Shown in pieces: positions 15,850 through 63,480 of a stretch of DNA of 64,000 nt; position 1 is the first letter of the stretch; every line of letters starts with the position of its first letter. Source of the DNA: Acidobacteriota bacterium (GTDB lineage: Bacteria; Acidobacteriota; UBA6911; RPQK01; JAJDTT01); assembly GCA_965222655.1 (NCBI GenBank), contig CBDCUP010000022.1, positions 1,802,955 to 1,866,954 of the forward strand. The letters run 5' to 3'. The position numbers were made by a program, and so were the translations under genes. Under the pieces are notes generated by a model that saw nothing but the letters and a program-made list of their open reading frames with translations, searched no databases and was not told where the DNA came from.

Positions 15850-16410
15850 AGTTTCAGCTTAGTGTCCCCCAGGAAGCCCTGGCCCCATTCGAGAAAGAAA
15901 CTTCGGTTGTCCCTAGCCACGAGCATCGATAGCAGCGTGTCCGTTGTAGGACGGGCACTCCTGCCCGTCGAGGACACCGACGGGCAGGAGTGCCCATCCT
16001 ACGAAGATCACGGCCTGTGTCAACTGGAGGCTCTTGAATGATCTTCTCGTCAATGAAGTTTCAGCTTAGTCCCGCCCCCACCGAGTTGGCCCCATTCGAG
16101 AAAGAAATTTCCGCCATTTCTAGCTACGAACATCGAGAGCTGAGTGACGCTTGTAGGACGGGCACTCCTGCCCGTCGAGGACACCGACGGGCAAGAGTGC
16201 CCGTCCTACAGGTCACTGCTCTTTCAGATGCTGTTTCCTACACCTTCTGCAAATGAAGTTTCAGCTTAGTGTCCCTCCGTGGCGCTGCCCCATTTCAAGA
16301 AAAAGACTTCAGTCGAGGGACGTGGGGGTGGCCTCCAGGCCGCCGTATTCCTTCCGTCGAGCCTTTGGCTCGAAAAACGGCGGCCTGGAGGCCACCCCCA
16401 CCGTCTTCAG
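15850..16410 (+). repeat. Tandem array of three ~200-bp hairpin-core MITE/REP-like units delimited by 'aatgaagtttcagcttag'
   Basis: Unit ends at 15850-15862, 16052-16069 and 16251-16269. Cores: gtaggacgggcactcctgcccgtcg palindrome (15956-16002 and 16153-16209) and gtgggggtggcctccaggccgccg palindrome (16322-16400). Confidence 0.8.
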
Positions 16411-32768: not shown

Positions 32769-35124
32769 CTTTCAATCCCTCCTTCTGGGTAAATCCAGCA
32801 ATTTGTCGCGAGCCGTCGAGTTTCATCAGCAACGGCGGCAAGAACAGCAGGTCGGCCAGCAAAGCAATCGCGAGGGTCAGCGCGGTCATCTTGCCCATGC
32901 CGGCGTTGAATTCGAACGTAGATTGAGCGAGCACCAGAAAGCCGGCTACGAGAATCATCGAGGTGGCGACCAGCGCCAAGCCCACAGTCGAGAACGCGTA
33001 GCGTACGGCTTGCTCGGAACTCAGTCCCTTTTCGCGGCGCGCTCGCAGGTACTTGCTCAGGAAGTGCACCGTGTCGTCGACGACAATGCCCAGGCTCATG
33101 CCCGTTACAATCGAGAGCCCAAGGTTCACTTGCCCAACGAAAACGCCCCAAAGCCCGAACGCGAACACAGCCGGCATTACGTTCGGAATCAAGCTCAGCC
33201 ATCCGAATTTCATACTCCGCAGGGCGAAGACCAAGGTGACCGAAATCAGGATGAAAGCCAGTACTGTGCCGAATAGCATGCTGCGAATGTTGCGCGCCGA
33301 GATATAGGAAAAAATCACACCGGGCCCTACTCCGTGAGTATGCATCGGTGGGGGCGCGTTCTCCCGGAGCCATCCCTCCCCTCCTTCGACCAATCCGACC
33401 AGCTCTTTGGAAGTAACGTTCTCGACGGTGACAATGAAACGCGTCGCCGACTTGTCGACGTTGATCTGATTGTTGAGGTCGAGGCCGTAGGGCAGTGACA
33501 TCTCGTAGAGCAGCAGGTACTGCGCGGCCATATCGCGCTCCTCGGGCAGGCGATACCAGGCCGGGTCATCGCCGTGCAGATTCTTATTCAGTCGCTTCAT
33601 GACGTCACTGATCGTGGCGACGTGCATGACTCCCGGTCGTCCTCGGTACCAGTTTGCGAACTCATCGATCTTCTGAAGATAGTGGGGGCTGCTGATGCCT
33701 CCCTCCTCACCCGCGGCCAAAGAGAACTCGATCTGATAGATGCCGCTTAGATTATCCATCGCGTAGTCGGCATCCTGCCGGAACGTCGTGCTCTCGTGGA
33801 AGTAGTCGACAAACTGATCATTCAGATCGTTCAGGGGAAGGCACCCCGCAAGGATGAAAGCCAGGACGGCCGATGTCCACAGCAACGGCTTGCGGCTGCC
33901 AAGGACGAAGTCGGCCAGGCGATCCATCCACTTCGGTGAGACGATCATCTCGCCGCGCGCTCGAATAGGCAGAATCGCGACAGCTGCGGGAAGGAAGAGC
34001 ATCGAGTAGACCCAGGCCGCGACGACACCCAATGTCGTGATGTTGCCCAAGTCATTGAGCGGCGGCACCTCGCTGAAGTTCATGCTGAGAAAGCCGATGC
34101 CGGTTGTCAGGCTTGTTATAAAAACGGGTTGGGCATTGGTCCGCAAGCTTTCGACTATGGCTTCATGCTTCGAACGGCCCCGGCGCATCTCCCGTAGCAT
34201 CGAGATCAGGACGTGAATGCTATCCGCGACCGCCAGAGTGAGAATCATCGTGGGCGCTGCGGATGAGGGCGGCGTCAGCGAGAATCCGAGCCAGCCAGCA
34301 AGACCCATGGCCGTTGCCAACGACATTCCGATGACGAGCACGGCCGACAGGGTCGCCGTAAACGACCGCAGCAAGATCACCATCACGACGATGATGCCCA
34401 CATACATCATCGGCACCAAAGTTCCCAAGTCGCGCATCGCCGACTCCTGGAAGGCGTTGTTGAGCATGGCCATACCGGTCATCGCCACGGCACTTCCCGG
34501 ATAGTCCGTTTCGATCCGTGCGGCGAGTTTGCGGGCATGGGCGACGGAGCGTGCCGTTTCGTCCAACTCTTCGCGAGGGAATTGCAGAGTCACGTTCACG
34601 CCGTTGACGTGTGCGTTGGCGGGTACGAGTCTGCCTCTCAGAAAGGGCTCCTGGAGGGCGATCTGCTTTGCTTGCTCGGCCTCGCCGGCGGAAAGTTCAC
34701 GGGCACCCGAGACGAGGTCTTCCACGGTCAGGTCGTCGCCCTCGGCGTAGCTATGCTGGAAGTTGGTGACCGATTCGACCCGAATGGCAAAGGGGATCCG
34801 CCAAGCCTCCGCGGTGAGGTCTTCGACGGCCGCGAGGGCATCGGGAGAGAACCCATTCCCGTCAGCAGGAGTGACGACGAAAAGGATGTTGTCATTCTTC
34901 GTGTAGATGTCCTGGACCGCGTCGAACGCCCGTAGCTGTGGATTGTCCTCTCCGAAGAAGACTCGATACTCGTCGATGAACTGCAGCCGCGAAGCGCCGG
35001 ATGCGGCGAACAGGGCGGCGAGCAGGGAGAGGGCCACAACAGCCCATCTCCATCGAATGACCCACTCGGCGTAGCGGATAGCCCGAATGTCCCACTTGCT
35101 TGTATTCGAAATGCTTGCTTTCAT
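32740..35124 (-). CDS. RND superfamily exporter (MMPL/HAE3-type, 12 TMS with two periplasmic loops)
   Basis: 794 aa. Two 6-TMS bundles each preceded by a large hydrophilic loop. Confidence 0.8.
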   Translation of the reverse strand: MKASISNTSKWDIRAIRYAEWVIRWRWAVVALSLLAALFAASGASRLQFIDEYRVFFGEDNPQLRAFDAVQDIYTKNDNILFVVTPADGNGFSPDALAAVEDLTAEAWRIPFAIRVESVTNFQHSYAEGDDLTVEDLVSGARELSAGEAEQAKQIALQEPFLRGRLVPANAHVNGVNVTLQFPREELDETARSVAHARKLAARIETDYPGSAVAMTGMAMLNNAFQESAMRDLGTLVPMMYVGIIVVMVILLRSFTATLSAVLVIGMSLATAMGLAGWLGFSLTPPSSAAPTMILTLAVADSIHVLISMLREMRRGRSKHEAIVESLRTNAQPVFITSLTTGIGFLSMNFSEVPPLNDLGNITTLGVVAAWVYSMLFLPAAVAILPIRARGEMIVSPKWMDRLADFVLGSRKPLLWTSAVLAFILAGCLPLNDLNDQFVDYFHESTTFRQDADYAMDNLSGIYQIEFSLAAGEEGGISSPHYLQKIDEFANWYRGRPGVMHVATISDVMKRLNKNLHGDDPAWYRLPEERDMAAQYLLLYEMSLPYGLDLNNQINVDKSATRFIVTVENVTSKELVGLVEGGEGWLRENAPPPMHTHGVGPGVIFSYISARNIRSMLFGTVLAFILISVTLVFALRSMKFGWLSLIPNVMPAVFAFGLWGVFVGQVNLGLSIVTGMSLGIVVDDTVHFLSKYLRARREKGLSSEQAVRYAFSTVGLALVATSMILVAGFLVLAQSTFEFNAGMGKMTALTLAIALLADLLFLPPLLMKLDGSRQIAGFTQKEGLKDDDAYAAAS

Positions 35125-35822: not shown

Positions 35823-36000
35823 AATCGCTACCAACCGGACCAAGCCGAGTTACATACCAACTAGTATGCATGTAGAGAAGCTGGTTGTCAAGACAGTACG
35901 CGAGCCAACCTCAAGTCCTGATCGAATCCACGCGAAGAGATGATGCTGATGTGCCTGCGACTCGATGCTGTCCGCGCTCGCCACGCTGACCTCCAATGGC

Positions 36001-37778
36001 TCAATGCGCTGTGTCGGTCTCTGGTTCGTAGACTGGTTCGCCTCGGTGAAGACGTAGGGCAACCCGGAGTGTCTGTTGCATGGCCCGCTGTGTCGGGGAA
36101 TGAGCGGCCAGATAGCGGGCCGCTCCAACCATCACCAGCCGTTTCTCATCAGCATCCTCCAGGTCCTGGTACTGACGAATCGCCGCTTCCAGCATCTGGA
36201 AGCTGTGGAACTCGGCGTCCTCACGAAGCAAGCTATCAGCCATCGTACGAATCAGCCCTCCGCCGTCTCCGGTCGCCTCCAGATAGCTGTAGACCAGCTG
36301 GCCAGCCGCGTCAGTCTGTTGTTGGAGGTTCATCAGGGCGAGCAGCTCCGTGTGCAGTGAGTCGATCTCCCTCCGGTGCGCCCCTCTTCGAGGTGCGCCC
36401 CTCTTCGATTGGAAGCAGGCAATCGGGCCGGTGGGATGTTGAAGAAGCGATCGAGATAGACACGCATGGCACCGTGGAAGACTCCTCGCAAGAGTTCGGG
36501 AGATTGGTTTCGTTTCAACAATTGGTGGAGTGCATTGGCATAGCTGAAACTGTGGAGCACCGCTATCCAGTCGGCAAATTCGTTTTGAACGTGGAAGCGG
36601 ACAATGCGCAGGGCCGCCGCATACGCTATCGCCTGAGCCAGTTGCACGGGCTGGGCCCCTTTTTGAATGGCGTCCTTGAGCGCCTCAATCGGGATGTAGG
36701 GATCGTCGCTGAAGAGGGCCTCAGTGAAGTCTTCCGGCTTGCTCCAGGTCTTGTCCCGTCCTGCCTCGACCAAGCTGGGGAGCCCATCGAACGCTTCTCG
36801 TAGCAGGGGCACCAGATCGATGGGATGACGCCAGGCGTTGCGCTCCTCGCTGCGCACCCCGGTGCAAAGCGGTCGGATCAGGGACGGCAGAACTCGGCTG
36901 GCGTGTTCCCAACCAACCCGGTCCAGCAGTTCGAAAGCTTTGTCGATGAAGTCCATCACATGGCCATCGTCCAAGTAGAAATGATCGGTTGCGGCTGTCA
37001 CCACGATGTCGGCCAACTGGGCGTCCGTCATTCCCTTATGTATCGCTGTTAGCAGGCAGCGCTCGGCCCCTTCGGTGCTACGCACCTCGACGAAGTAGCG
37101 AAACCAGCGCTTGAGATGTTCCTGCGGGATGTCCTGGTTGTGGAGCGGCTGGATGTTGAACTTGGGGGTCTGACCGGCACAGTCCCGGGCAATGTGTACC
37201 AGGCCGTGATACAGCGGAGCAATGCGCTCCTCGCCCTGCAGGTGGTCGCAGAGGTTGGACATCGCGCTCAGGATGGTGAGGCCGGAGCTCCAGTCCTCGC
37301 GATGCTTCACCCCATACGAGGCACCCTGTTTGGCGATTTCGTTGTGGGACACACCACTGTGATGCAGTCCGACCACCGATTTGCCCACGATCAGATTGAG
37401 ATTCTGCTCTAGTCCTTCCTGCAGTCGTTGGGTCCAGCGTTTGACGGGATCGGTCTGGGGCGGCATGGTGTCCAGAAAGACCTCTCCGTCCCTGACCTCC
37501 ACCGCATAGGAATCGACATCGTCGGCGAACAGATTGAAGGTGCATCCGCTGACCAGATCGAAGCGGGCGTGATGCCAATAGCAGGTTAGGATCCCGTCTT
37601 CAACCGTCCCGCGATGCAGGGGGAAGCCCATGTGAGGACAGCGGTTATCAACGGCATGGAGCTTATCGCCGTGATGAAAGATGACGATGGGTACTGGCCC
37701 CTGGGATATCAGCAGGGGACTCTTTCCTTGAACCTCCTTCAGGGAACCAACGTGGATGACCCCATTCTTCCGGTCCAT
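36001..37778 (-). pseudogene. Rieske [2Fe-2S]-domain protein gene split into two ORFs by a 17-bp tandem duplication
   Basis: Rieske boxes CPHMGFPLH and CYWHHARFD in ORF 36333..37778. Deleting one copy of the 17-mer fuses it in frame to ORF 36001..36333. Confidence 0.7.
36375..36408. repeat. Perfect 17-bp tandem duplication (ggtgcgcccctcttcga x2)
   Basis: Read directly at 36375-36391 and 36392-36408. Confidence 0.9.
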
Positions 37779-37964
37779 ACTGTCGACCTCCGTACCTCAG
37801 ACCACGCTCCGAATCTCGATCGTAGCAAAGATGAGCTCGGCTAACCATGTTGTAGCGGGAGATCCAGGAATCCCCCCGATCAGAGTAGGGCAAGGAAGAC
37901 TGCGATCCAGTACGGTGACAGAGCCCGCTGGCGTGCTACAATCGGCTGCCAGAGGGGGCGTGCG

Positions 37965-39440
37965 ATGGGTCGACACTGGACGCGGCGGCAGTTCGGAAAG
38001 CTCGGAGCGGCGCTGGCACTTGCCCCCGTCCCGAGCTGGTCCCAGGCAGGGTCTTCGCGGGGGCTGGTTCGGGTAACGCGGGGTGCGGCACTCCTGCGCG
38101 CGCCCGTTTCTGTCCCGGCTGGCGAGGTCTGGCGCTACGGAATTACCTACCCGTTCCAGGTCGCGCCGCGCTTGGCTGGCGTGTTCTGCAACATCCGCAA
38201 GGCACTCAATCCCGGTGTCGATTTCGAGCTCGGCTCCGACGTGCTGCTCTTCGACAGCCTCGATGCGATCCGTAGCGAAGCTGCGGTCCAAATCTCCCGT
38301 AACCACGGGGAGCCGAACCCAAACTCCCGGCCTCCGAACGAGCGGGCGGTCATGGTGAAGTACCCGGTGGCCGGCGCCTTCGTGCCCACCGGCGCGAAGC
38401 GGGCCGACGGCTCGCCCCACCCGCATGCCGGAACCGGGTTCGGCCTCTCGACCGCCCAGGCCTGGCCCCAGCACGACCGGGACCTCGGACACAACGCCGA
38501 CCGGATTGGGCGTCGCGCCTACCCGGGGGCCCAGGCCTACGAGTACCTGGAGTTCCAGCAGCTTTCGTACGACGGTACCCGGTTCCGGGCGGAGAAGGCG
38601 GAGCCGCTGGTGGAGGGTCGAGCAAGCGTCGGAGACTGGTTCCTAGCCGGCAACCCGATTCGGAACGGGATCGCCGACGGCGACGATCTCCTACTCCCGT
38701 ACAGCTGCCGCCGCGGGGAGCCGGCCGGCCCGAAGCGGTCCCTGGTCGCCAGCGGTGTCCTCCGTTTTCGCCGCACTGCGGGTCTCTGGCAAGCGCACAC
38801 GTTTGTCCCGGTGACGCCCGAGGACGGCTCCTGGGAGCCAACCCTGGTTCGCGACGTCGACGGGACGCTGCTGCTCTGCGCACGGGGCAAAGGGGAACCG
38901 AACCGGACGAGCATCCGGGTCTGGCGCTCCGCGGACGGTGGCACGACCTGGCGGCTACAGATCGAGGCGCTGGGGCCCATCTCGATGTCGCCGGTGTCGA
39001 TCAACCAGGCTGCCGACGGCACTCCCTACGTGGCCGCCAACCTCTTCGAGGTGCCGCTCTGGCCGATCGGCGACGAGCGCTACAACCACAGCGGGTACAA
39101 AGGTACCGGGGATGGCGGGCGGATGCGCCTCGGGGGGTGGCTGCGGGAGCGCCTGGTGCTCTGGCCGCTCTCGGCCGACCGCAAGAGCCTGGCGTCGCCG
39201 ATCGTCGCCCGCGACTGCCGGTCGGAATTCGGACCGCCCCCGGGCGGCAGCAGCTGGCACGCCGACCACCCTTCGGCCATGAACCTCCAGCTTGGCGACG
39301 GGAGCTGGCACAACATCCTCGGCTACCGCGTCCTCGAGCGCGCCGAGGCGACGCACGCGATCGCTCCAGCACCCCAGTCGGGAGCCTACCTCGAGGAAGT
39401 CCTCTCGTCGGGTCCGCCGTTGCCCGCCTGGCACTTCTAA
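37965..39440 (+). CDS. Tat-exported hypothetical protein with an Asp-box (SADGGTTW); locally very high GC
   Basis: Tat motif TRRQFGKLGAALALA. 491 aa. About 70% GC by eye. Confidence 0.55.
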   Translation: MGRHWTRRQFGKLGAALALAPVPSWSQAGSSRGLVRVTRGAALLRAPVSVPAGEVWRYGITYPFQVAPRLAGVFCNIRKALNPGVDFELGSDVLLFDSLDAIRSEAAVQISRNHGEPNPNSRPPNERAVMVKYPVAGAFVPTGAKRADGSPHPHAGTGFGLSTAQAWPQHDRDLGHNADRIGRRAYPGAQAYEYLEFQQLSYDGTRFRAEKAEPLVEGRASVGDWFLAGNPIRNGIADGDDLLLPYSCRRGEPAGPKRSLVASGVLRFRRTAGLWQAHTFVPVTPEDGSWEPTLVRDVDGTLLLCARGKGEPNRTSIRVWRSADGGTTWRLQIEALGPISMSPVSINQAADGTPYVAANLFEVPLWPIGDERYNHSGYKGTGDGGRMRLGGWLRERLVLWPLSADRKSLASPIVARDCRSEFGPPPGGSSWHADHPSAMNLQLGDGSWHNILGYRVLERAEATHAIAPAPQSGAYLEEVLSSGPPLPAWHF

Positions 39441-53531: not shown

Positions 53532-56500
53532 ATGTGGATGGGCTACCGTCTAGAATCTGAGGTGCGCAGGCTTCCTGCCCTGGTTGTTTTTCTCTCCGTC
53601 CTGACGGCTCAGGGGACAAGCCTAGGGCTGGCAGCGTCGTCATCCCCAATCTCCTCGATACTGGACCGTTGTGTTTCCTGCCACCGAGGGAAGGCGGCAC
53701 AGGCGAGCCTGGATCTGAGCTCCCGTAGGGGAGCCCTCGAAGGCGGATCCTCGGGCCCCGCGCTGGTGCCGGGCCATGCCACCAGGAGTCTGCTCTTTCA
53801 AAAGTCTTCTGACGGGAAAATGCCGCCAGGAGCTCCCCTGAGCACTGCGGAGATTGTAGCCCTGCGGCTCTGGATCGATGAGGGGGCCGCCTGGCCCGAT
53901 CTGAAAACTGACTTGCCGGCTCAAGAAGCAGCGTCCGAGGGGCCCACCTGGTGGTCTCTCCGTCCCCTCGGACCGGCCAAGGTGCCGGACGTATCCCACG
54001 CTTCCTGGATCCGGCGCCCTTTGGATACCTTCGTGCTGAGGGGGCTGGAAAACCAGGGATTGGAGGCTTCAGGCGAGGCCGACAAGGTGACGCTGATCCG
54101 GCGAGCGACACTGGATTTACTGGGACTACCTCCCACACCCGAGGAGATCGATGACTTCGTCGGCAACGCATCTCCCCGGGCCTATGAGCAGCTCCTGGAC
54201 CGGCTGCTGGCTTCGCCTCACTATGGCGAGCGTTGGGGACGCCACTGGCTGGACCTGGCCCGCTTCGGTGAGAGTCATGGATATGAAAGGGACCAGATCC
54301 GGGATAACGCCTGGCCCTATCGCGACTACGTCATTAGCAGCTTCAACCAGGACAAACCCTATCCCCGGTTCGTGAGAGAACAATTGGCGGGAGACGTCCT
54401 GGAGCCGGTGACCCGAGAAGGTATCGCCGGCACGGGCTTTCTGGTGGCCGCTCCCTGGGACGACGTCGGGCACACGCAGCAGAGTCGCATTATGAGGGCT
54501 CGCGTCCGGGCGGATGAGATGGAGGACATCGTGGGGACCGTGGCCCAGACGTTCCTCGGTATGACGGTTAACTGCGCCCGCTGCCACGATCACAAATTCG
54601 ATCCCATTTTGCAGAAGGACTACTACCGTTTGAAGGCTGCATTGGATGGAGTCTGGCACGGGGATCGGACCCTCTTCGAGGCCGCCGAGGCGGAGGAGCG
54701 CCGCCGCCGAGTGGAGCCCCTGCAGAGGCGGATCCGCGAGTTGTCGAGTGAGGTCGCTGCCCTTCATGAATCTGCGAGGCAGAGGATCCTCAAACGGAAG
54801 GCCTACCCGATGTTGGCTCAGGTACCCGGTCTTCTGTCTCGCTGGGCCTTCGACGCGGACGCCTACGACCAGCTGGGCGGGCTTCACGGGAACCTGGACA
54901 GCGACGCCGTCATCGATGACGGCGGTCTCCAGTTCAAGCAGGAAAGAGCTCGGTTCACCACCATGCCTCTGCAACAGGATCTGAGAGAGAAGACCCTGGA
55001 GATCTGGCTGCGCATGGAAGATCACGCTGGGTATGGGTTTTACATGACGGTCCTGGGTGAGGGGCCGACGTCCAGGGGGGTGTTCGACGGACTACGCTAT
55101 GACGGGGGCTCCCGGACCTGGAAGAGCGAGAGCGAATTCAACAACCGGACTCTTCAGGTCGAGAAAGCCCACGAGGCGGAGGGTCTTTCCGAGCCGCTTC
55201 ACCTGGCCATCGTCTACGGTCCTCAGGATCGGATCTCGATCTACCGTGAGGGGAAGCTTTACACCAGCTACGGCCCCCAGCGGGAAGGATCCGAGACGAA
55301 GCTTCAGGTTTTTCGGGCCGGGAAGGATAGGGTCAGGTTCGGCAGGTTGGAAGGAGGAGGACAGATCGACGAGGCCCGTCTCTACGAGAGAGCCTTGACG
55401 GCAGAGGAGGTCCAGCGCTCCTATCGAGGCGGCATCCACAACGTTACCCGCTCAGAAGTGCTCGAGGAGCTGAGTGACGAAGAGGGGCGCCAAAAGGACT
55501 TGCTGTTGGAGGAACTGGTCCGCCGGCAGGCAGATCTGGAGAGGGTTCCACCGATTCCCCTGGCTTATGCTGCCAACTCTCTTCAACCCGGACCGACCTT
55601 TGTCCAGAACCGCGGTGATCCCGCTGCGCCCGGTGAGCGGGTGCTGTCAGGGGGACTCTCCGGCGTGTCCACCCTCTCACCCGAGTTCGGACTCGCCGAG
55701 AATGCGCCGGAAGCCCAGCGCCGTCTACGTCTGGCGGAATGGATCGTGGACCCCGACAATCCCCTGACCAGCCGTGTTCTGGTCAACCGGGTCTGGCAAT
55801 ATCACTTCGGACGAGGCATCGTCGGGACGCCCAACGATTTTGGTTTCAACGGAGAGCGGCCCTCCCATCCCGAGCTGCTGGACTGGCTGGCGCGTTGGTT
55901 CATCGATCACGGTTGGAGTCTGAAGGCCTTGCACAAGGAGATCATGCTCTCCAGCAGTTATCGCCAGTCCTCCCGCTTCCGGGAGGCGGCTGCAGACAGA
56001 GATCCGGAGAACAGGCTTCTGTGGAGGTACTCCCCGCGTCGTCTCGAAGCTGAAGTGATCCGTGACGCCCTCCTGGCCACCAGTGGCGAGCTGAACTGGA
56101 AGAGGGGAGGGCCTGGCTTCCGTCCCTTCGAAGTCCGGATCTTCAACACTCACTTCTATGATCTGAAAGATTTGGACGAGGCCGAGATGAAGAGGCGCAG
56201 CGTGTACCGGATCGTCGTCCGATCCGCTGGGGACCCTCTCCTGGAGTCCTTCGACTGTCCCGACTCGGCCTTCAAGGCTCCCCGGCGCGGTATCACGACT
56301 ACTCCCCTGCAGTCGTTGGCACTGATGAACAACTCCTTCGTCCTGCGCCAGGCAGATCGGCTGGCACAGCGGATCGAGGGTGAAGCGGTTGGAGTATTGC
56401 CGATTCAAGTGGATCGCGCCTACCGACTCACGCTGGGCCGGATTCCTCGAGGGGAAGAAGCAAGCAGGGCTCTCGCTCATATCCAGAGGCATGGTCTGGA

Positions 56501-56552
56501 GAGCCTCTGCTGGGCCCTCTTCAATTCCAGTGAGTTCCTCTATCTCAACTAA
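53532..56552 (+). CDS. PSCyt1 (Planctomycete cytochrome c-like) + DUF1549 + DUF1553 domain protein
   Basis: Start MWMGY...signal peptide. CVSCHRGKAAQASLDLSS (PSCyt1). ...WIRRPLDTFVLRGLE... (DUF1549). C-terminal ...FDCPDSAFKAPRRGITTTPLQSLALMNNSF (DUF1553). Confidence 0.8.
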   Translation: MWMGYRLESEVRRLPALVVFLSVLTAQGTSLGLAASSSPISSILDRCVSCHRGKAAQASLDLSSRRGALEGGSSGPALVPGHATRSLLFQKSSDGKMPPGAPLSTAEIVALRLWIDEGAAWPDLKTDLPAQEAASEGPTWWSLRPLGPAKVPDVSHASWIRRPLDTFVLRGLENQGLEASGEADKVTLIRRATLDLLGLPPTPEEIDDFVGNASPRAYEQLLDRLLASPHYGERWGRHWLDLARFGESHGYERDQIRDNAWPYRDYVISSFNQDKPYPRFVREQLAGDVLEPVTREGIAGTGFLVAAPWDDVGHTQQSRIMRARVRADEMEDIVGTVAQTFLGMTVNCARCHDHKFDPILQKDYYRLKAALDGVWHGDRTLFEAAEAEERRRRVEPLQRRIRELSSEVAALHESARQRILKRKAYPMLAQVPGLLSRWAFDADAYDQLGGLHGNLDSDAVIDDGGLQFKQERARFTTMPLQQDLREKTLEIWLRMEDHAGYGFYMTVLGEGPTSRGVFDGLRYDGGSRTWKSESEFNNRTLQVEKAHEAEGLSEPLHLAIVYGPQDRISIYREGKLYTSYGPQREGSETKLQVFRAGKDRVRFGRLEGGGQIDEARLYERALTAEEVQRSYRGGIHNVTRSEVLEELSDEEGRQKDLLLEELVRRQADLERVPPIPLAYAANSLQPGPTFVQNRGDPAAPGERVLSGGLSGVSTLSPEFGLAENAPEAQRRLRLAEWIVDPDNPLTSRVLVNRVWQYHFGRGIVGTPNDFGFNGERPSHPELLDWLARWFIDHGWSLKALHKEIMLSSSYRQSSRFREAAADRDPENRLLWRYSPRRLEAEVIRDALLATSGELNWKRGGPGFRPFEVRIFNTHFYDLKDLDEAEMKRRSVYRIVVRSAGDPLLESFDCPDSAFKAPRRGITTTPLQSLALMNNSFVLRQADRLAQRIEGEAVGVLPIQVDRAYRLTLGRIPRGEEASRALAHIQRHGLESLCWALFNSSEFLYLN

Positions 56553-56791
56553 GCTGAAACTCGATTGGTTAGGAGATCATGCAAGAGCCGCCAATGACAG
56601 AGCCGTGACTGCGAAGGAGCGGGTCCGGCATACGGATGCCGGAAACAACGCACCAAACGGACGGTGGCCCGTTGGACCCCATTTGCCGCATGTTCCGATC
56701 GGTGATCGGTACCGCTCCAGTCACGGCTCTGTCAGAAGCGGTAGCGACAATCACGGCAAACGTAACCGAAGTTTCTTTCCCAAATGGGGCC
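56549..56791 (-). repeat. MITE/REP-like unit with the gccaatgacagagccgtgactgc core, overlapping the stop codon of the DUF1553 gene
   Basis: 'ctaagctgaaact' at 56549-56561 contains stop taa 56550-56552. Ends 'gaagtttctttcccaaatggggcc' 56768-56791. Confidence 0.8.
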
Positions 56792-56819
56792 ACGCTGCCC
56801 GGGGGAGACTGAACTGAAA

Positions 56820-58271
56820 ATGAAGACGAAATCGAGTCTCGCTGAAATTCCTCTTCTGCCCCGGCGCCACTTCCTGTTGGGAGCAGGCAGTGGGCTGGGG
56901 GCCCTCGCTCTGGCTTGGCTCCTGCATGACGAGGGCCTCGGCAGAAGTCTTGGCAAAGGGGGGAAGTTTGGGTCCAGGCAGCCCCATTTTCCAGGCCGGG
57001 CCAAGCGGGTGCTGCACATCTTCGCGTCCGGTGGCGTCAGCCACCTGGATACGTTCGATTACAAGCCAGATCTGGCCAAACACGACGGAAAGGCCCTGAC
57101 CAACAAGGGCGAGATTGACACCTTCTTCGGCAAGCCTGGGAATCTGATGAAGTGTCCCTGGACCTTCCGCAAACGAGGCCAGAGCGGTCTCTGGGTCAGT
57201 GATCTTCTGCCTCACCTGGCCAGCTGCGCCGATGAGCTCTGCCTGATCCAATCGATGGTGGCCAAGAGCTCCAATCACACCCCCGCCACCTTCCAGATGA
57301 ACAGCGGATTCGTGCGCAATGGCTTTCCCTCAATGGGCTCCTGGATCTCCTACGGTCTGGGAGCGGAGAGCCAGGATCTGCCTGCATTCGTCGTCCTTCC
57401 TGATTCCAGGGGCCTGCCTGCCGGCGGTTCTATCAATTGGACGGCTGGATTCCTTCCAGCTGCCCAACAGGGCGTGGCTTTCAGGCACACCGGCGACCCC
57501 ATTCCAGATCTCAAGACCCCCGAAAGCGTTTCCCCTGATCGTCGCCAGGCAGAGATGGAGCTCGTAACCCAGATGAACCGGGAGTACCTGGAAGCCTATC
57601 CCGGGGACTCTACTCTGGAGGCGCGACTCCGGTCCTACCAACTGGCCGCCCGGATGCAGTTGAGCGTGCCCGATATCGTGAGCCTCAAGGACGAAGGCCC
57701 GGAGGTCCAGAGACGATATGGTCTGGATCACGAGGTGACGGCTGGGTTTGGCCGGAACTGCCTTCTCGCCAGAAGGCTCCTGGAGCGTGGAGTTCGCATG
57801 GTTCAAGTCTGGAGTGGAGGCGCCTTCGGGAAGCCCCGTATCAACTGGGATGCCCACGAGGATATCGTGGAGAACCACGGCAACCAGGCGGCAACAATGG
57901 ACAAGCCCCTGGCCGGACTATTAACGGATCTGAGAGAGCGGGGGATGCTGGAGGACACGCTGGTGGTATGGTCCACCGAGTTTGGCCGAACACCGGTTAC
58001 CCAGGGGTTCGGAGCCACCGGCCGGGATCATCACCAGCACGCCTTTACCTGCTGGCTGGCGGGCGCTGGCGTCAAGAAAGGTTTCTCCTACGGGATCACC
58101 GACGAAGTGGGCTACAATGTCGCCGAGAATCCCGTGACCGTCTATGATTTCCATGCCACCATCCTCCACCTGCTGGGTCTGGACCACAAGAAGCTCACCT
58201 TCTACCACAACGGAATCCAGCGTCGTCTGACCGATGTCCACGGGCATGTTGTGGAGGCTCTGCTGGGCTGA
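56820..58271 (+). CDS. DUF1501 (sulfatase-fold) Tat-exported protein, partner of the DUF1553 protein
   Basis: Start MKTKSS...PRRHFLLGAGSGLGALA (Tat). ORF 56784..58271 trimmed because the first codons lie in the repeat. Confidence 0.8.
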   Translation: MKTKSSLAEIPLLPRRHFLLGAGSGLGALALAWLLHDEGLGRSLGKGGKFGSRQPHFPGRAKRVLHIFASGGVSHLDTFDYKPDLAKHDGKALTNKGEIDTFFGKPGNLMKCPWTFRKRGQSGLWVSDLLPHLASCADELCLIQSMVAKSSNHTPATFQMNSGFVRNGFPSMGSWISYGLGAESQDLPAFVVLPDSRGLPAGGSINWTAGFLPAAQQGVAFRHTGDPIPDLKTPESVSPDRRQAEMELVTQMNREYLEAYPGDSTLEARLRSYQLAARMQLSVPDIVSLKDEGPEVQRRYGLDHEVTAGFGRNCLLARRLLERGVRMVQVWSGGAFGKPRINWDAHEDIVENHGNQAATMDKPLAGLLTDLRERGMLEDTLVVWSTEFGRTPVTQGFGATGRDHHQHAFTCWLAGAGVKKGFSYGITDEVGYNVAENPVTVYDFHATILHLLGLDHKKLTFYHNGIQRRLTDVHGHVVEALLG

Positions 58272-58281
58272 CAGAAGTAGA

Positions 58282-60756
58282 ATGACCCCAGAGCCCTTGA
58301 ATCTTCCTGAAAAAGCACGGGTTGTCATCATCGGCGCCGGGGTTGTTGGCTCCAGCGCCGCCCACTATCTGACCCTTCACGGCTGGCGCGACGTTGTGGT
58401 GCTGGATCAGGGCCCACTCTTTGAGGTTCTTGGATCCACCTCCCACGCTCCGGGTCTGGTATTCCAGACCAATCCCTCCCGAACCGTTTGTCAGCTAGCG
58501 CAATGGACGGTGGATCTCTACAACGAGCTGTCGTTGGAAGACGAGGGTCCGTGCTTCTATCCCGTAGGCAGTATTGAGATCGCGTACAGTCGCGAGCGTC
58601 AGCGGGAGCTGAAGCGGAGGCTCGGTTTCGCTCGATCCTGGGGACTACCCGCCCAGATCATCACGCCTGCGGACGTGAAATCGCTGATTCCCAACCTGGA
58701 CATTCAGCGAGTCCACGGTGGCTATCATGTCCCCTCGGACGGATTGGGGAAGGGTGTCCGCATCCTGAAGGCCCTGGCCCAGCAGGCCCAGAGCCGCGGC
58801 GCCATCTTCGTGCCGAATGCCCGGGTCAATCAGATTGAATCGAAGCAGGGAAGGGTGAGTGCCGTCATCTGCAATCAGGGCAGGATCGAGACCGAAGCGG
58901 TGCTCCTTTGTGCGGGAATCTGGGGCCCCAGGGTGGGAAGGCTTGCCGGGGTTCCGGTACCGATGCAGCCCATGCAGCATCTCTATGCTCGGACTGAGCC
59001 ACTGCCGGAGCTGGCCGGGACCAGTACAGAGGTCGTCCACCCCGTTCTGCGGCACCAGGATCGATCCATGTACTTCCGGCAGGACTTTGACAGTTATGGT
59101 GTCGGGTCCTACCGCCACGAGCCCCTGACAGTCGACCTGGAGGATCTGGGCGAGGAGGAAACCGGGCAACCCAGATCGGCCCTCAGACCTTTTACGCCAG
59201 AACATTTCGAAAACGCCCGGGCCGATGCGCTAGAGCTTTTTCCCTCTTTCCGGGACGTCGAGTTTCCCTACCGCATCAACGGAATCTTTGCTTTCACGCC
59301 AGATGGGAATTCCCTCCTGGGACAGTCGTCCGTCCTGAAAGGATTCTGGCTGGCGGAAGCAGTGTGGTTGACTCATGGTGGCGGTGTGGGTAGGGCCATC
59401 GCCGAATACATGGTCGAGGGAGCCCCGCCGCTGGATCTGCGGGATGTCGACTGCAATCGCTTCCATTCCTATGTGCCCAGTCGCCCTTACGTCAGAAGAC
59501 GTGGGGCGCAGCAATATCGAGAGGTCTACGACATTATTCATCCGCTCCAGCAGATGGAGCATCCCCGCCGGCTGCGGCTGAGCCCCTTTCACGCTCGTCT
59601 CGAAGAGCTGGGAGGGGAGATGTTCGAGAACGTGGGCTGGGAGCGCCCACAATGGTTCTCCTCCAACGTATCCCTTCCCCAACCCGCAGCGGGATGCGAC
59701 CGCGAGGGTTGGTCTGCTCGTCACTGGTCGCCCTTGATTGCCGCCGAGCATCTGGCGACTAGAGAAGGTGTGTCCCTATTCGATCTGACCCCCTTTACCA
59801 AGCTCGAAATAAAAGGGACGCGGTGTCTATCCTTTCTCCAGCATCTGGCGGCCAATCAGATGGACCAGCTCCTGGGTAGGATCACCTATACCGCCCTGCT
59901 CAACCGGAACGCCGGCATCGAATGCGATCTCACGGTGACGCGGTTGGAGGAGCAGCGGTTCCTGATCATTGCCGGTGCCGGCACGGGTATGCACGACCTG
60001 GCTTGGATCCGTTCTCAGCTCTCAGGAAGGGAGGGGGTCCAGCTGACCGATCTCACGTCAGCTTATTGTTGCCTGGGACTGTGGGGGCCCGCCTCGCGGG
60101 ATCTCCTCCAGTCTGTCTGCGAGAACGATCTGTCCAACCCTGCGTTTCCCTACCTGACAGCCCAATCGATCTACGTGGGCCAGGTTCCGGTTCTGGCACT
60201 TCGAATCTCCTACGTGGGGGAGCTGGGATGGGAGCTCTACGCACCTACCGAGTACGGGCTTCATCTCTGGGACACACTCTGGGAAGCCGGCTCCAGCCTC
60301 GGCCTTGCGGCTGCCGGTGGTGGAGCCTTTGAAAGCCTGAGACTGGAGAAGGGCTACCGATTCTGGGGAAATGATATCCACTCCGAAAACAACCCTATCG
60401 AGGCCGGGTTAGACTTCGCCGTCCGGATGTCCAAGGGAGATTTTCTGGGCCGGGAAGCGCTGGAAAGAATCCGTCAGGAGGGAGTCCGGCGCAAGCTCTG
60501 CTGTTTTCGTCTGGAGGATCCCCGAGTGGTGGTCATGGGCAAGGAGCCGATCTGGCACCAGGGCCGGGTTGTCGGGTACGTGACCAGCGCCAACTTCGGT
60601 TACACAGTTCGGGAGAGCATCGCCTATGGAAATCTCCCGGTCGAACTCGCTCCTCTCGGCAGCAGTGTCGAGGTCGAGTTCTTCGGCGAGCGGCATCCCG
60701 CGACGGTAGTTTCCGAACCACGCTACGATCCGAAGAACACCCGACTCACAGAGTGA
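58282..60756 (+). CDS. FAD-dependent oxidoreductase fused to an aminomethyltransferase (GcvT-like) folate-binding domain; dimethylglycine/sarcosine dehydrogenase family
   Basis: N-terminal VVIIGAGVVGSSAAHYL (FAD GxGxxG). ~820 aa two-module architecture with C-terminal GcvT-like region. Confidence 0.75.
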   Translation: MTPEPLNLPEKARVVIIGAGVVGSSAAHYLTLHGWRDVVVLDQGPLFEVLGSTSHAPGLVFQTNPSRTVCQLAQWTVDLYNELSLEDEGPCFYPVGSIEIAYSRERQRELKRRLGFARSWGLPAQIITPADVKSLIPNLDIQRVHGGYHVPSDGLGKGVRILKALAQQAQSRGAIFVPNARVNQIESKQGRVSAVICNQGRIETEAVLLCAGIWGPRVGRLAGVPVPMQPMQHLYARTEPLPELAGTSTEVVHPVLRHQDRSMYFRQDFDSYGVGSYRHEPLTVDLEDLGEEETGQPRSALRPFTPEHFENARADALELFPSFRDVEFPYRINGIFAFTPDGNSLLGQSSVLKGFWLAEAVWLTHGGGVGRAIAEYMVEGAPPLDLRDVDCNRFHSYVPSRPYVRRRGAQQYREVYDIIHPLQQMEHPRRLRLSPFHARLEELGGEMFENVGWERPQWFSSNVSLPQPAAGCDREGWSARHWSPLIAAEHLATREGVSLFDLTPFTKLEIKGTRCLSFLQHLAANQMDQLLGRITYTALLNRNAGIECDLTVTRLEEQRFLIIAGAGTGMHDLAWIRSQLSGREGVQLTDLTSAYCCLGLWGPASRDLLQSVCENDLSNPAFPYLTAQSIYVGQVPVLALRISYVGELGWELYAPTEYGLHLWDTLWEAGSSLGLAAAGGGAFESLRLEKGYRFWGNDIHSENNPIEAGLDFAVRMSKGDFLGREALERIRQEGVRRKLCCFRLEDPRVVVMGKEPIWHQGRVVGYVTSANFGYTVRESIAYGNLPVELAPLGSSVEVEFFGERHPATVVSEPRYDPKNTRLTE

Positions 60757-60766
60757 GATAGCTGAA

Positions 60767-60995
60767 CCATTCGAGAAAGAAACTGTGCTCACCCCTGCCA
60801 TGATTGTCGCTACCGCTTCTGACAGAGGAGCGGTCCCGATCACCGATCGGGACATGCTGCAAGAGGAGGCCAATCGGCCACCGTCCGTTTGGTCCGCTAT
60901 TTCCGGCATCCGTATGCCGGGACCGCCCTTTGCAGTCCCATCTCTGTTATTGGCGGTTCTTGGGTGACCTCCTAGCCAAATGAAGGTTCAGCTTG
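60767..60995 (+). repeat. MITE/REP-like unit (gccaatgacagagccgtgactgc family, opposite orientation) directly after the oxidoreductase stop
   Basis: Begins 'ccattcgagaaagaaact' 11 nt after stop 60754-60756. Ends 'aatgaaggttcagcttgg'. Confidence 0.75.
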
Positions 60996-61686: not shown

Positions 61687-61894
61687 CGATTAAGGATTGG
61701 CCGCCCTTGGGGCGGCTCACAACCGCCAAGCTCCCCGCTCTGCGGGGACGTTATGACTTACAGGCGTTTCTGAAATTTAAGTAGGCACTTCGTGCCGACG
61801 GCCAAGGCCGTAAAAGGCTGTTTCGGGACACCCCGGCTGTGACGAAAGGGCGGTCTCAGAGAACAGCTCACTTGATTGAAATTCCGAGACTGTT

Positions 61895-63480
61895 AAGTTT
61901 AAGGTTTGATTAAAAGTGTTGCATGACCAAGCACGAAAAGCGATGAGTCATCTGCTCTGCGGCGGTGATTTGGCCGCTGAAACGACGCGGCCCACCTCTT
62001 CAGAGGGTGGCACGGGCCATCGTCGGCTGGCGGCAGGAGAGGTTGTACATTCTTTTCAGATTCCAGGCGATGCTGGCCAGAGTCCACTCCCGGTCTGCTG
62101 CCTCCGCTCCTCTGAGAGAGAACTGCGTAAAGCCCATCACCGATTTGATGATCCCAAAGACGGGCTCCGGGACGGCTTTGCGTTGCCCGTAAATGGCTCG
62201 ACCCGCGGGGGTCTTCAACCGGTATCTCATCTGCTCCACCGCATCGGCGTCTTGCCCGGGCGGCTCCGGTTGTTTCCAGCGTTCGGTCGGCCGCAAGTGG
62301 TGGGCTTCCCGCTCGACCGCAATATAGGGGACAATCGCGTGCTCGCCACAAAGCTCCACGTTGGGGCCACTGAAGTAGCCGCTGTCGGCCAGCAACTCCT
62401 GGGCCCGACCCAGCGACTCGGGCAGGGCTTGCAGCGCCGCCAGGGCCGGCTCCAATTCTTTCTTGTCGTCGGCGTTTTGCGGGACATGAGCCGCCACAAT
62501 CAAGAAGCTGTCGTTATCGACCAAGGCCTGAGCGTTGTAGCATTGCTCAAATCCCCCGCCCGAGACCGGCATGATCCGAGACTCTTCATCCGTCAGATTG
62601 ATCTGATCCTGGTCTCGAATTCCTCCTTGGGGCGGTTGGGGGGGGCGACCCCGCGGTTTGTTTCCCCGTTTCCTCTGGGCTTGCCGCTTGGCCACTTTGG
62701 CTTCATATTCGGCCTGCTCACCTGCCTGCCGCTCGGCCGCCCGCTGGGCCAGCTTCTGCTTTGCTTCCTCGATCGCTTTCAACCGTTCCTCCCGCCGCGC
62801 CAGCTCAGCCGGGATGTCCATCCCTTCCGTTTCTTCTCGTCCATCCGCTGCCTCGGCCAGCCGCATCAACTCTTCCACTTCTTCTCGCAGCCGCGCTTCC
62901 AGCTTCCGGATGTGCCCCCAACTCAACGCACTGTGCTTGGAGGCATTGGCTTTGACCTTCGTGCCATCCAAACTCACGCGGCCCAACTTCAGAAATCCCA
63001 TCGCCTGGGCCAGCAGCAAGATCTCCACAAACAGCGGCTTCAGCTCTTGCAAAAATCGCTTCCGGAAATGGGCGAGGGTGTCGTGATCCGGATGCGTGTT
63101 GCCGGCGAGGTAGCGAAACGCCACCGAATCGTAGCTGGCTTGCTCCAACTTCCGACTCGAAAACACCCCCGTGGCATAGCCGTAAAACAACAACGCCAGC
63201 ATCATGGCCGGATGGTAGCCTTCCGATCCCCGCTTCGTGTAGGAATCCTCCAGCTTCCTCAGCTCCAGCTTGCTCACAACCTCCACCACGAAGCGAGCCA
63301 GATGCGTCTCCGGCAGCCATTCCTGCACCGAAGGGGGAAACAGATAAGGAGTCTCTCGATCGACTACTTTAAATCGATTCGCCATCACTAATGATGCCTG
63401 TGGGGTATGACCTCGAAAGTCCGACAGGCTGCTAGGAGTCAAGAATGAGTTTGTCGAAGTCACTATCAGTCTCCGTCGTG
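61895..63480 (-). mobile_element. IS1182/IS5-like element (ends not resolved)
   Basis: Single long transposase gene abutting the IS200 right end. Terminal inverted repeats could not be identified by eye. Confidence 0.4.
62000..63385 (-). CDS. IS1182-family (IS5-related) DDE transposase
   Basis: N-terminal ...DRETPYLFPPSVQEWLPETHLARFVVEVV... (DUF772-type). DDE region ...VSLDGTKVKANAS.... ...ADSGYFS.... Confidence 0.8.
   Translation of the reverse strand: MANRFKVVDRETPYLFPPSVQEWLPETHLARFVVEVVSKLELRKLEDSYTKRGSEGYHPAMMLALLFYGYATGVFSSRKLEQASYDSVAFRYLAGNTHPDHDTLAHFRKRFLQELKPLFVEILLLAQAMGFLKLGRVSLDGTKVKANASKHSALSWGHIRKLEARLREEVEELMRLAEAADGREETEGMDIPAELARREERLKAIEEAKQKLAQRAAERQAGEQAEYEAKVAKRQAQRKRGNKPRGRPPQPPQGGIRDQDQINLTDEESRIMPVSGGGFEQCYNAQALVDNDSFLIVAAHVPQNADDKKELEPALAALQALPESLGRAQELLADSGYFSGPNVELCGEHAIVPYIAVEREAHHLRPTERWKQPEPPGQDADAVEQMRYRLKTPAGRAIYGQRKAVPEPVFGIIKSVMGFTQFSLRGAEAADREWTLASIAWNLKRMYNLSCRQPTMARATL

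Follow-up and report, generated by a model that had tools for sequence, protein, structure and literature searches.

A 17-bp tandem duplication in a Rieske-domain gene of uncultured Acidobacteriota: a probable nascent pseudogene from a widespread protein family

Is a gene that a short tandem duplication has thrown out of frame on its way to being lost, does it still produce a working enzyme from two pieces, or can it be switched back on? The question is raised by a Rieske-domain gene on the minus strand of a 64,000-nucleotide stretch of an Acidobacteriota bacterium (assembly GCA_965222655.1, contig CBDCUP010000022.1, positions 1,802,955 to 1,866,954; hereafter the window), in which a 17-bp segment occurs twice and splits a 586-aa reading frame into open reading frames (ORFs) of 481 and 110 aa. 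A first-pass annotation, made from the sequence alone, had regarded the event as very recent and as a candidate reversible switch. The explanation that we favor, with a probability of about 0.7, is a young, fixed loss-of-function frameshift, i.e., a nascent pseudogene, in what would be a dispensable gene of a genome rich in insertion sequences (IS). According to this reconstruction, the tandem duplication of a 17-bp segment of the 586-aa gene would have occurred in the ancestor of a single strain cluster of an uncultured Acidobacteriota bacterium; the +17 shift after His462 would put 19 junk residues in place of the helix 463-476, the early stop would remove the conserved C-terminal five-helix segment, and the two-copy allele would then have become fixed in the strain cluster. 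The split gene would have lost its function.

The duplication and the broken reading frame

The 17-mer GGTGCGCCCCTCTTCGA (plus strand) is found twice in direct succession at 36375-36408 of the window, and the two copies are 100% identical, with no mismatch. In gene sense, where the unit reads TCGAAGAGGGGCGCACC, the copy at 36392..36408 (minus strand) comes first and codes the native (N)RRGAH, whose last residue is His462; the copy at 36375..36391 (minus strand) is the second, downstream one. The periodicity extends 0 bases beyond either edge and a partial third copy is absent. This is the only perfect tandem repeat with a unit longer than 10 bp in the 64-kb window and also its best-scoring Tandem Repeats Finder array (score 68); by chance, about 7e-6 such repeats of period 17 would be expected in 64 kb, and about 3e-4 if all periods from 10 to 50 are counted.

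The gene starts with the ATG at 37778, 8 nt downstream of a GGAGG Shine-Dalgarno-like motif (37787..37791, minus strand). The 5′ ORF (36333..37778, minus strand, 481 aa) codes native residues 1-462, which include the Rieske domain and most of a helical body; then comes an out-of-frame tail of 19 residues, LEEGRTGGRSTHCTRSCSP (codons 463-481; 36336..36392, minus strand), which stands in place of native residues 463-476 (RREIDSLHTELLAL) and ends at a TGA stop. The +17 insertion makes the frame fail after His462, with termination 110 codons early. The 3′ ORF (36001..36333, minus strand, 110 aa) equals native residues 477-586 and carries the residues that are invariant in the family beyond the frameshift: R513, E514, D515, F518, H519, Q522, Q530, R549, P556, R559 and others. 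It is called as a separate gene by gene callers in three related assemblies that are described below (L002, L003 and L004). In silico deletion of one copy gives a single 586-aa ORF reading ...PASNRRGAHRREIDSLHTELLALMNLQQQTDAAGQ...; over 100 homologues, 577-601 aa long, align with this repaired protein along its whole length. The exact repeat and the ORF translations thus bear out what the first-pass annotation had described, namely a perfect back-to-back duplication that frameshifts the Rieske gene, a 481-aa minus-strand ORF ending at 36333, and a reading into ORF 36001..36333 upon removal of one copy. The single fused protein of about 590 aa that it proposed also stands, with the length corrected to 586 aa and the 481-aa product resolved into 462 native and 19 out-of-frame residues.

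The part cut off by the early stop is the strongly conserved C-terminal five-helix segment. In end-to-end alignments of the repaired protein with its homologues (sets of 15 and 74 sequences), the C-terminal 110 residues are among the most conserved regions, with the motifs REDAEFHSFQ and RYLAAHxPTQR and many invariant Arg, Glu, Asp, His and Gln; the duplication site (columns ~463-482) is the least conserved stretch of the whole 15-sequence alignment. An AlphaFold (AF2) model, m3bffa3b72267, was made for P0001, a 94%-identical orthologue, with a predicted local distance difference test score (pLDDT) of 91.3 and a predicted template modeling score (pTM) of 0.90. In this model residues 443-462 form a coil of about 20 residues, with pLDDT 77-81, and residues 463-476 form a helix; therefore, the frame fails precisely where the coil passes into the helix. 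The 14 residues of this helix, which include the nearly invariant Leu474, are coded by neither ORF.

As for the origin of the duplication, we infer replication slippage or template switching. Microhomology-mediated slippage was rejected, since the repeat fails to extend by one base on either side and flanking microhomology is thus absent. A transposon excision footprint was considered unlikely: no IS sequence is present at the site, and the IS630-family element found in the same gene of a close relative has no copy within the window. A 17-bp target duplication without any remnant of the element is, moreover, unusual among bacterial IS families. The junction between the two copies makes a new GC-rich hairpin (DNA folding, -18.8 kcal/mol versus -10.5 kcal/mol in the single-copy context), which is a consequence of the duplication and not its cause. 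The 17-mer is also a substitution hotspot, with 4 differences in 17 nt between the RRGAH allele of the window and the RRMGN alleles of the relatives L001, L006 and L008, compared with only about 5 in the flanks (~170 nt).

Carrier strains, single-copy relatives and parallel disruptions

The identical 34-bp two-copy structure, with the same stop, occurs in three further sequences: L002 (ERZ25766727; the 4.73-Mb contig ctg362384_42x_l, at 42x coverage), L003 (ERZ25068966; 21x) and L004 (ERZ23495113; a scaffold of 1.3 kb, named according to another scheme). They come from three ENA analyses and show two contig-naming styles; judging from the names, a different assembler and platform probably lie behind the L004 scaffold. 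Eight contigs bear the 110-aa product and 6 bear the 481-aa product, P0122; three of these contigs, L002, L003 and L004, were read. The window's own 481-aa product is absent by exact look-up, because it carries a private N279D change. A comparison across 6.3 kb showed 5 single-nucleotide polymorphisms (SNPs) between the window and L002, 6 between the window and L003, and 3 between L002 and L003; therefore, these sequences are not copies of one consensus. That the duplication is an assembly or sequencing artefact, absent from the DNA of the organism, is hardly credible, given the same 34-bp structure in assemblies of different ENA analyses, including a differently named short scaffold, and the SNPs that distinguish its carriers. 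A perfect 17-bp tandem insertion is also atypical of homopolymer or indel errors.

Since at least three distinguishable strains carry the duplication, it must be older than their separation, and it is fixed in the members sampled. Alleles more than 99% identical to that of the window always have exactly two copies (cluster membership: 15 of 29 members listed), more distant alleles have exactly one, and no single-copy allele was found at more than 99% identity. Exact look-ups among about 15 billion proteins retrieved neither the repaired window protein, nor the repaired L002 protein, nor the IS-excised L005 protein, although alleles with one extra change would escape such a search. Pattern scans of JGI metagenomes, admitting one or two copies, found neither state.

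Every relative outside the >99% strain cluster has a single copy of the 17-mer. L001, L006 and L008, at 92-94% DNA identity, have one diverged 17-mer, TCGAAGAATGGGGAA[C/T]C, which codes RRMGNRRE. L005, which is 97-98% identical, has one copy that is essentially the window's unit, TCGGAGAGGGGCGCACC; its fragment P0128 reads RRGAHRREIDSLHTELLALMNLQQQ, matching exactly the sequence predicted for the single-copy state, and L005 has in common with the window the gene order 491-aa ORF, Rieske gene, TetR and MMPL. The single copy in L005, L006, L008 and L001 indicates that the two-copy state is derived. By comparison of these sequences, the duplication is placed after the split from the L005 lineage, at a synonymous divergence (dS) of about 0.05. 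The locus thus shows a frame disruption that is derived relative to intact orthologues, together with the loss or separation of conserved residues, as in recent frameshift pseudogenes.

The comparison with orthologues suggested in the first-pass annotation therefore agrees with it, as L005 codes the predicted single-copy sequence and the homologues have the fused form. Its view of a very recent event holds in that the duplication is derived and young, as indicated by the perfect copies, the single copy of the 97-98% identical L005 and the lack of decay; an event at the level of a clone or within one sample does not agree with the presence of the allele in the SNP-distinct L002, L003 and L004. 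The annotation had also stated that relatives with two copies and the same stop would speak against its interpretation: such relatives exist, but they are the conspecific strains L002, L003 and L004, and the more distant ones are single-copy.

The same gene is disrupted by other means in related lineages. In L005 an IS630-family element of 1111 bp (L005:2870-3980) interrupts it behind codon 244. The ORFs of this element are of the helix-turn-helix and DDE_3 types, its ends are the inverted repeats TACACAGCGCC and TACACAACGTC, and the TA target is duplicated. The counterpart of this target in the window is the TA at 37050..37051 (minus strand), where no insertion is present. The truncated 247-aa product of L005 is found on 6 contigs, including short-read Logan assemblies. 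At L094:4001-5358, a DDE_Tnp_IS240 (IS6-family) element truncates a copy similar to P0132 near residue 192, and the remainder of the gene is missing. At L093:3001-4901, which belongs to a 77%-identical clade, there is a frameshift in the same linker and, close to the 3′ end, an insertion of some 130 bp; errors are possible at the 5x coverage of this contig. Intact versions of 585-586 aa, P0001, P0132 and P0124, are present in other metagenome-assembled genomes (MAGs) of Acidobacteriota, in unrelated, transposase-rich neighborhoods. In two samples an intact P0124 lies on a contig separate from the one bearing the duplication; since the coverages of the contigs differ (10x versus 42x, and 2x versus 21x), P0124 is taken to be from a co-occurring relative rather than a paralogue. 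The repeated, independent disruption is the strongest argument for dispensability, and we infer from it that this group of IS-rich genomes does not require the gene.

Loss of function, fission or switch

The ratio of non-synonymous to synonymous substitution rates (dN/dS), estimated by the Nei-Gojobori method, is 0.065 for the window against L005; the other pairs have values of 0.09-0.13. When changes were polarized with outgroups, the branch to the duplication lineage showed 10 synonymous and 1 non-synonymous change (V275M), with three more synonymous and 0 non-synonymous changes 3′ of the frameshift. Within the duplication lineage only 3 changes are seen in all, a small number of events, all of them private to the window: two synonymous ones and N279D. 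The latter affects codon 279 (36942..36944, minus strand), which is GAC (Asp) in the window and AAC (Asn) in L002, L003, L005, L006, L008 and L001; Asn279 is invariant in the 74-sequence alignment, and its replacement in the window strain supports loss of function. Other observations weigh against it. From branch counts and dN/dS, no molecular signature of decay is seen in either ORF, which suits a very young pseudogene just as well as selection that still acts on the two halves. In the former case, the duplication and the IS in L005 would both have to be young on the scale of the dS of about 0.05. In addition, the break falls at the end of the most variable segment of the family, the coil of about 20 residues with lower pLDDT, i.e., in the place most tolerant of a split, and the shifted-frame stop overlaps the native Met477 codon. 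Indeed, the TGA (36335..36333) shares its A with the ATG of Met477 (36333..36331), forming a TGATG stop/start overlap at 36331..36335 (minus strand), which has the geometry of the translational-coupling type. UGAUG stop/start overlaps of this kind, in which the upstream stop and the downstream start share one base, are common between the genes of operons, e.g., trpB-trpA.

These features would fit a functional gene fission, which we consider unlikely, where two translationally coupled cistrons, with re-initiation at the Met477 ATG, would give polypeptides of 481 and 110 aa that associate non-covalently into a working enzyme. A GGAG at 36346..36349 (minus strand), 12 nt upstream of this ATG, is a candidate ribosome-binding site, and it is the only Shine-Dalgarno-like element available to the 110-aa ORF; it is weak and its spacing is sub-optimal. 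No further lesion interrupts either ORF in the four sequences that carry the duplication, the three changes 3′ of the frameshift on the branch are all synonymous, and the coil at whose edge the break lies (pLDDT 77-81 against 91 overall) is followed by a single short helix as the only element lost. However, CTGATGAAC is present also in the intact orthologues L001 and L006 (L008 has CTGTTG at that spot), and the stop/start overlap is therefore older than the duplication and accidental; unlike in coupled cistrons, it results from a frameshift into a pre-existing CTG-ATG. The helix 463-476, with Leu474, belongs to neither ORF, a 19-residue junk tail is added, and the synonymous changes may be older than the duplication. 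The fission also lacks parallels in the family, where the fused form is essentially universal: among the best 120 of the 7997 homologues of the repaired protein almost all have 577-601 aa, with query coverage of 98-100%, so a recurrent split architecture is not seen. In a search of a representative set with the 110-aa ORF, the C-terminal module forms the end of longer proteins. The short family members examined are uninformative, since the stand-alone C-terminal match of L095 is a contig-edge fragment and that of L096 lies on a contig of 2x coverage with several frameshifts; the short member of L093 has a second lesion. Finally, IS elements have inactivated the gene outright in sister lineages, which argues for dispensability. 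The more specific idea of a fission caught at its origin, in which the split at the tolerant coil and the TGATG restart would already yield a working two-subunit enzyme, possibly with rare reversion to the fused form, appears more doubtful still. Programmed recoding was also rejected: no slippery A/T run occurs between the duplication and the stop, and a +1 slip at CCC-TGA would lead into the third frame, the native one requiring -1 or +2. No Rfam family was detected across the whole window.

Perfect tandem direct repeats are prone to precise deletion by replication slippage, independently of RecA, and removal of one copy restores the frame of this gene exactly. Both points count for a reversible ON/OFF switch, in which slipped-strand mispairing would remove and restore the two-copy repeat often enough to be useful, giving a population of expressing and non-expressing cells (phase variation). 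Changes in tandem-repeat copy number can indeed be phase-variable in bacteria, and promoter tandem repeats of Mycobacterium tuberculosis vary at 1e-2 to 1e-3 per chromosome (PMC12817950). As in contingency loci and in the M. tuberculosis case, copy number here sets the downstream frame and the loss of one unit would restore the gene; the latter concerns, however, promoter repeats with measured heterogeneity within populations (PMC12817950). Among the close strains at this locus no polymorphism is seen, as the window, L002, L003 and L004 all have two copies and the other relatives all have one. Contingency loci are typically made of many copies of 1-9 bp units; here, there are just two copies of a long, 17-bp unit. 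Furthermore, the exact look-ups of the repaired window, repaired L002 and IS-excised L005 alleles were empty, the product is a redox protein of cytoplasmic type and has neither a surface nor a restriction-modification function, and the losses by IS insertion or truncation in relatives cannot be reversed by slippage. The switch that the first-pass annotation had envisaged is accordingly given up as very improbable, on account of the constant copy number, the lack of an intact allele of the lineage in the exact look-ups and the sister losses through insertion or truncation.

The presumed young loss-of-function allele has its closest counterpart in frameshift pseudogenes that derive from short tandem duplications. 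Such pseudogenes are a product of ordinary bacterial gene decay and are frequent in host-restricted, IS-rich genomes. As in these cases, a derived, out-of-frame local duplication truncates a conserved protein, intact single-copy relatives exist and sister lineages have been hit by IS; differently from them, the lesion described here is very young, has neither secondary lesions nor raised dN/dS, and lacks flanking microhomology. Most likely, the locus is an ordinary frameshift pseudogene of this kind, whose counterparts in relatives have been lost through IS elements. It is a clean and well-polarized example of a young frameshift allele, of little importance in itself, and a small data point on parallel gene loss among IS-rich uncultured Acidobacteriota; a search of the literature on the host group or on similar cases found nothing specific. 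For annotation it provides a warning, as the 481-aa and 110-aa "genes" of public assemblies are two pieces of one gene.

The Rieske-helical protein family and the surrounding DNA

The by-product of more interest is the protein family itself, a widespread Rieske-helical fusion of about 580 aa without a characterized or solved relative of its helical body, which is a reasonable target for structural and functional work irrespective of the frameshift. On the alignments described above, the fused form of about 586 aa is the norm of the family and essentially universal. The region coding the Rieske [2Fe-2S] domain (residues 9-101) spans 37476..37754 (minus strand), with the ligands C47/H49 at 37632-37640 and C66/H69 at 37572-37583. 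The two Rieske boxes reported in the first-pass annotation are present, as C47-P-H49 and C66-Y-W-H69 (CXH-X16-CXXH), and the match to Pfam Rieske PF00355 scores 51.9 bits against a cutoff of 20.3. A PDB search with the P0001 model retrieved Rieske ferredoxins, with target-normalized TM-scores (TMt) from about 0.65 to 0.87, and root-mean-square deviations of about 2.0-3.9 Å over about 100-120 aligned columns; the model has, thus, the Rieske beta-sandwich fold. The closest solved relatives are the Rieske-type ferredoxins of carbazole, biphenyl and toluene oxygenase systems (CarAc, 1VCK/2DE5; BphA3, 2E4P; T4moC, 1VM9) together with the mouse soluble Rieske ferredoxin (3D89), and the best TMt values, 0.81-0.87, are those of CarAc and BphA3. 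They share with the N-terminal ~105 residues the CXH...CXXH arrangement; however, they are stand-alone proteins of about 105 aa, whereas here the domain is fused to a helical body of about 470 residues.

Residues 111-573 of the P0001 model are entirely alpha-helical, with high confidence. No match for the helical body was found in Pfam and NCBIfam, which gave nothing beyond residue ~105, or in the PDB. With its N-terminal Rieske domain and larger C-terminal part, the protein resembles the alpha subunits of Rieske non-heme iron oxygenases, such as KshA, NdmA, SxtT/GxtA and CarAa, with which weak matches are obtained; these PDB matches cover only about 120 residues, the Rieske part alone. The absence of a match to any catalytic-domain family and the all-helical body in the model indicate that the protein is not a ring-hydroxylating oxygenase alpha subunit. 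Given its many invariant His, Asp, Glu and Arg, a plausible guess is that the helical domain is a putative metallo- or cofactor-binder that would take electrons from the fused Rieske center. The family is present in MAGs of Acidobacteriota, Latescibacterota, Poribacteria, Gemmatimonadota and Zixibacteria, and among 80 genome loci no gene neighbor was found to be conserved across phyla. The occurrence in Poribacteria, Latescibacterota, Acidobacteriota and Gemmatimonadota, together with an ankyrin-repeat neighbor in L094, points to a marine sponge microbiome as a possible habitat.

Around the Rieske gene, the carriers and L005 show further differences. L005 has an additional 2.37 kb between the Rieske stop and TetR (L005:5034-7402), containing a 199-aa ORF and a pyrroloquinoline quinone (PQQ)-propeller protein on the opposite strand; this segment is absent in the window (~35982-35991), in L002 and in L003. 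The MMPL/RND-type transporter gene (32740-35124, minus strand), an intact 794-aa gene in the window and in L002, has in L003 a G>T change (L003:4657, window 34677) that makes a stop at codon 150 (E150*) and splits it into ORFs of 149 and 619+ aa. On the other side, divergent from the adjoining Rieske gene, lies the 491-aa ORF (37965-39440), which has about 70% GC compared with 58-60% around it; it has no Pfam match, and its position is kept in L002, L003 and L005.

Elsewhere in the window, remnants of mobile elements are clustered at 25428-30416, where a 694-aa large serine recombinase (Resolvase+Recombinase+Zn_ribbon_recom; 25428-27512, minus strand) is found together with a truncated IS21, made of a C-terminal fragment of IstA (28867-29574) followed by IstB (29571-30416). 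Self-BLAST detected a family of intergenic repeats, some 70-210 bp long and with identities of 76-91%, at 15850-16269, 23389-23598, 51811-52022 and 60819-60994; they occur in either orientation and look like miniature inverted-repeat transposable elements (MITE) or repetitive extragenic palindromic (REP) sequences. A perfect 122-bp inverted repeat, at 52807-52928 and 61775-61896, flanks about 8.8 kb that contain genes for a PSCyt1/PSCyt2/PSD1 protein (53172-56552), a DUF1501 protein (56784-58271) and a DAO+GCV_T dehydrogenase (58234-60756); this segment could be invertible or mobile, or the repeats could represent a duplicated regulatory region.

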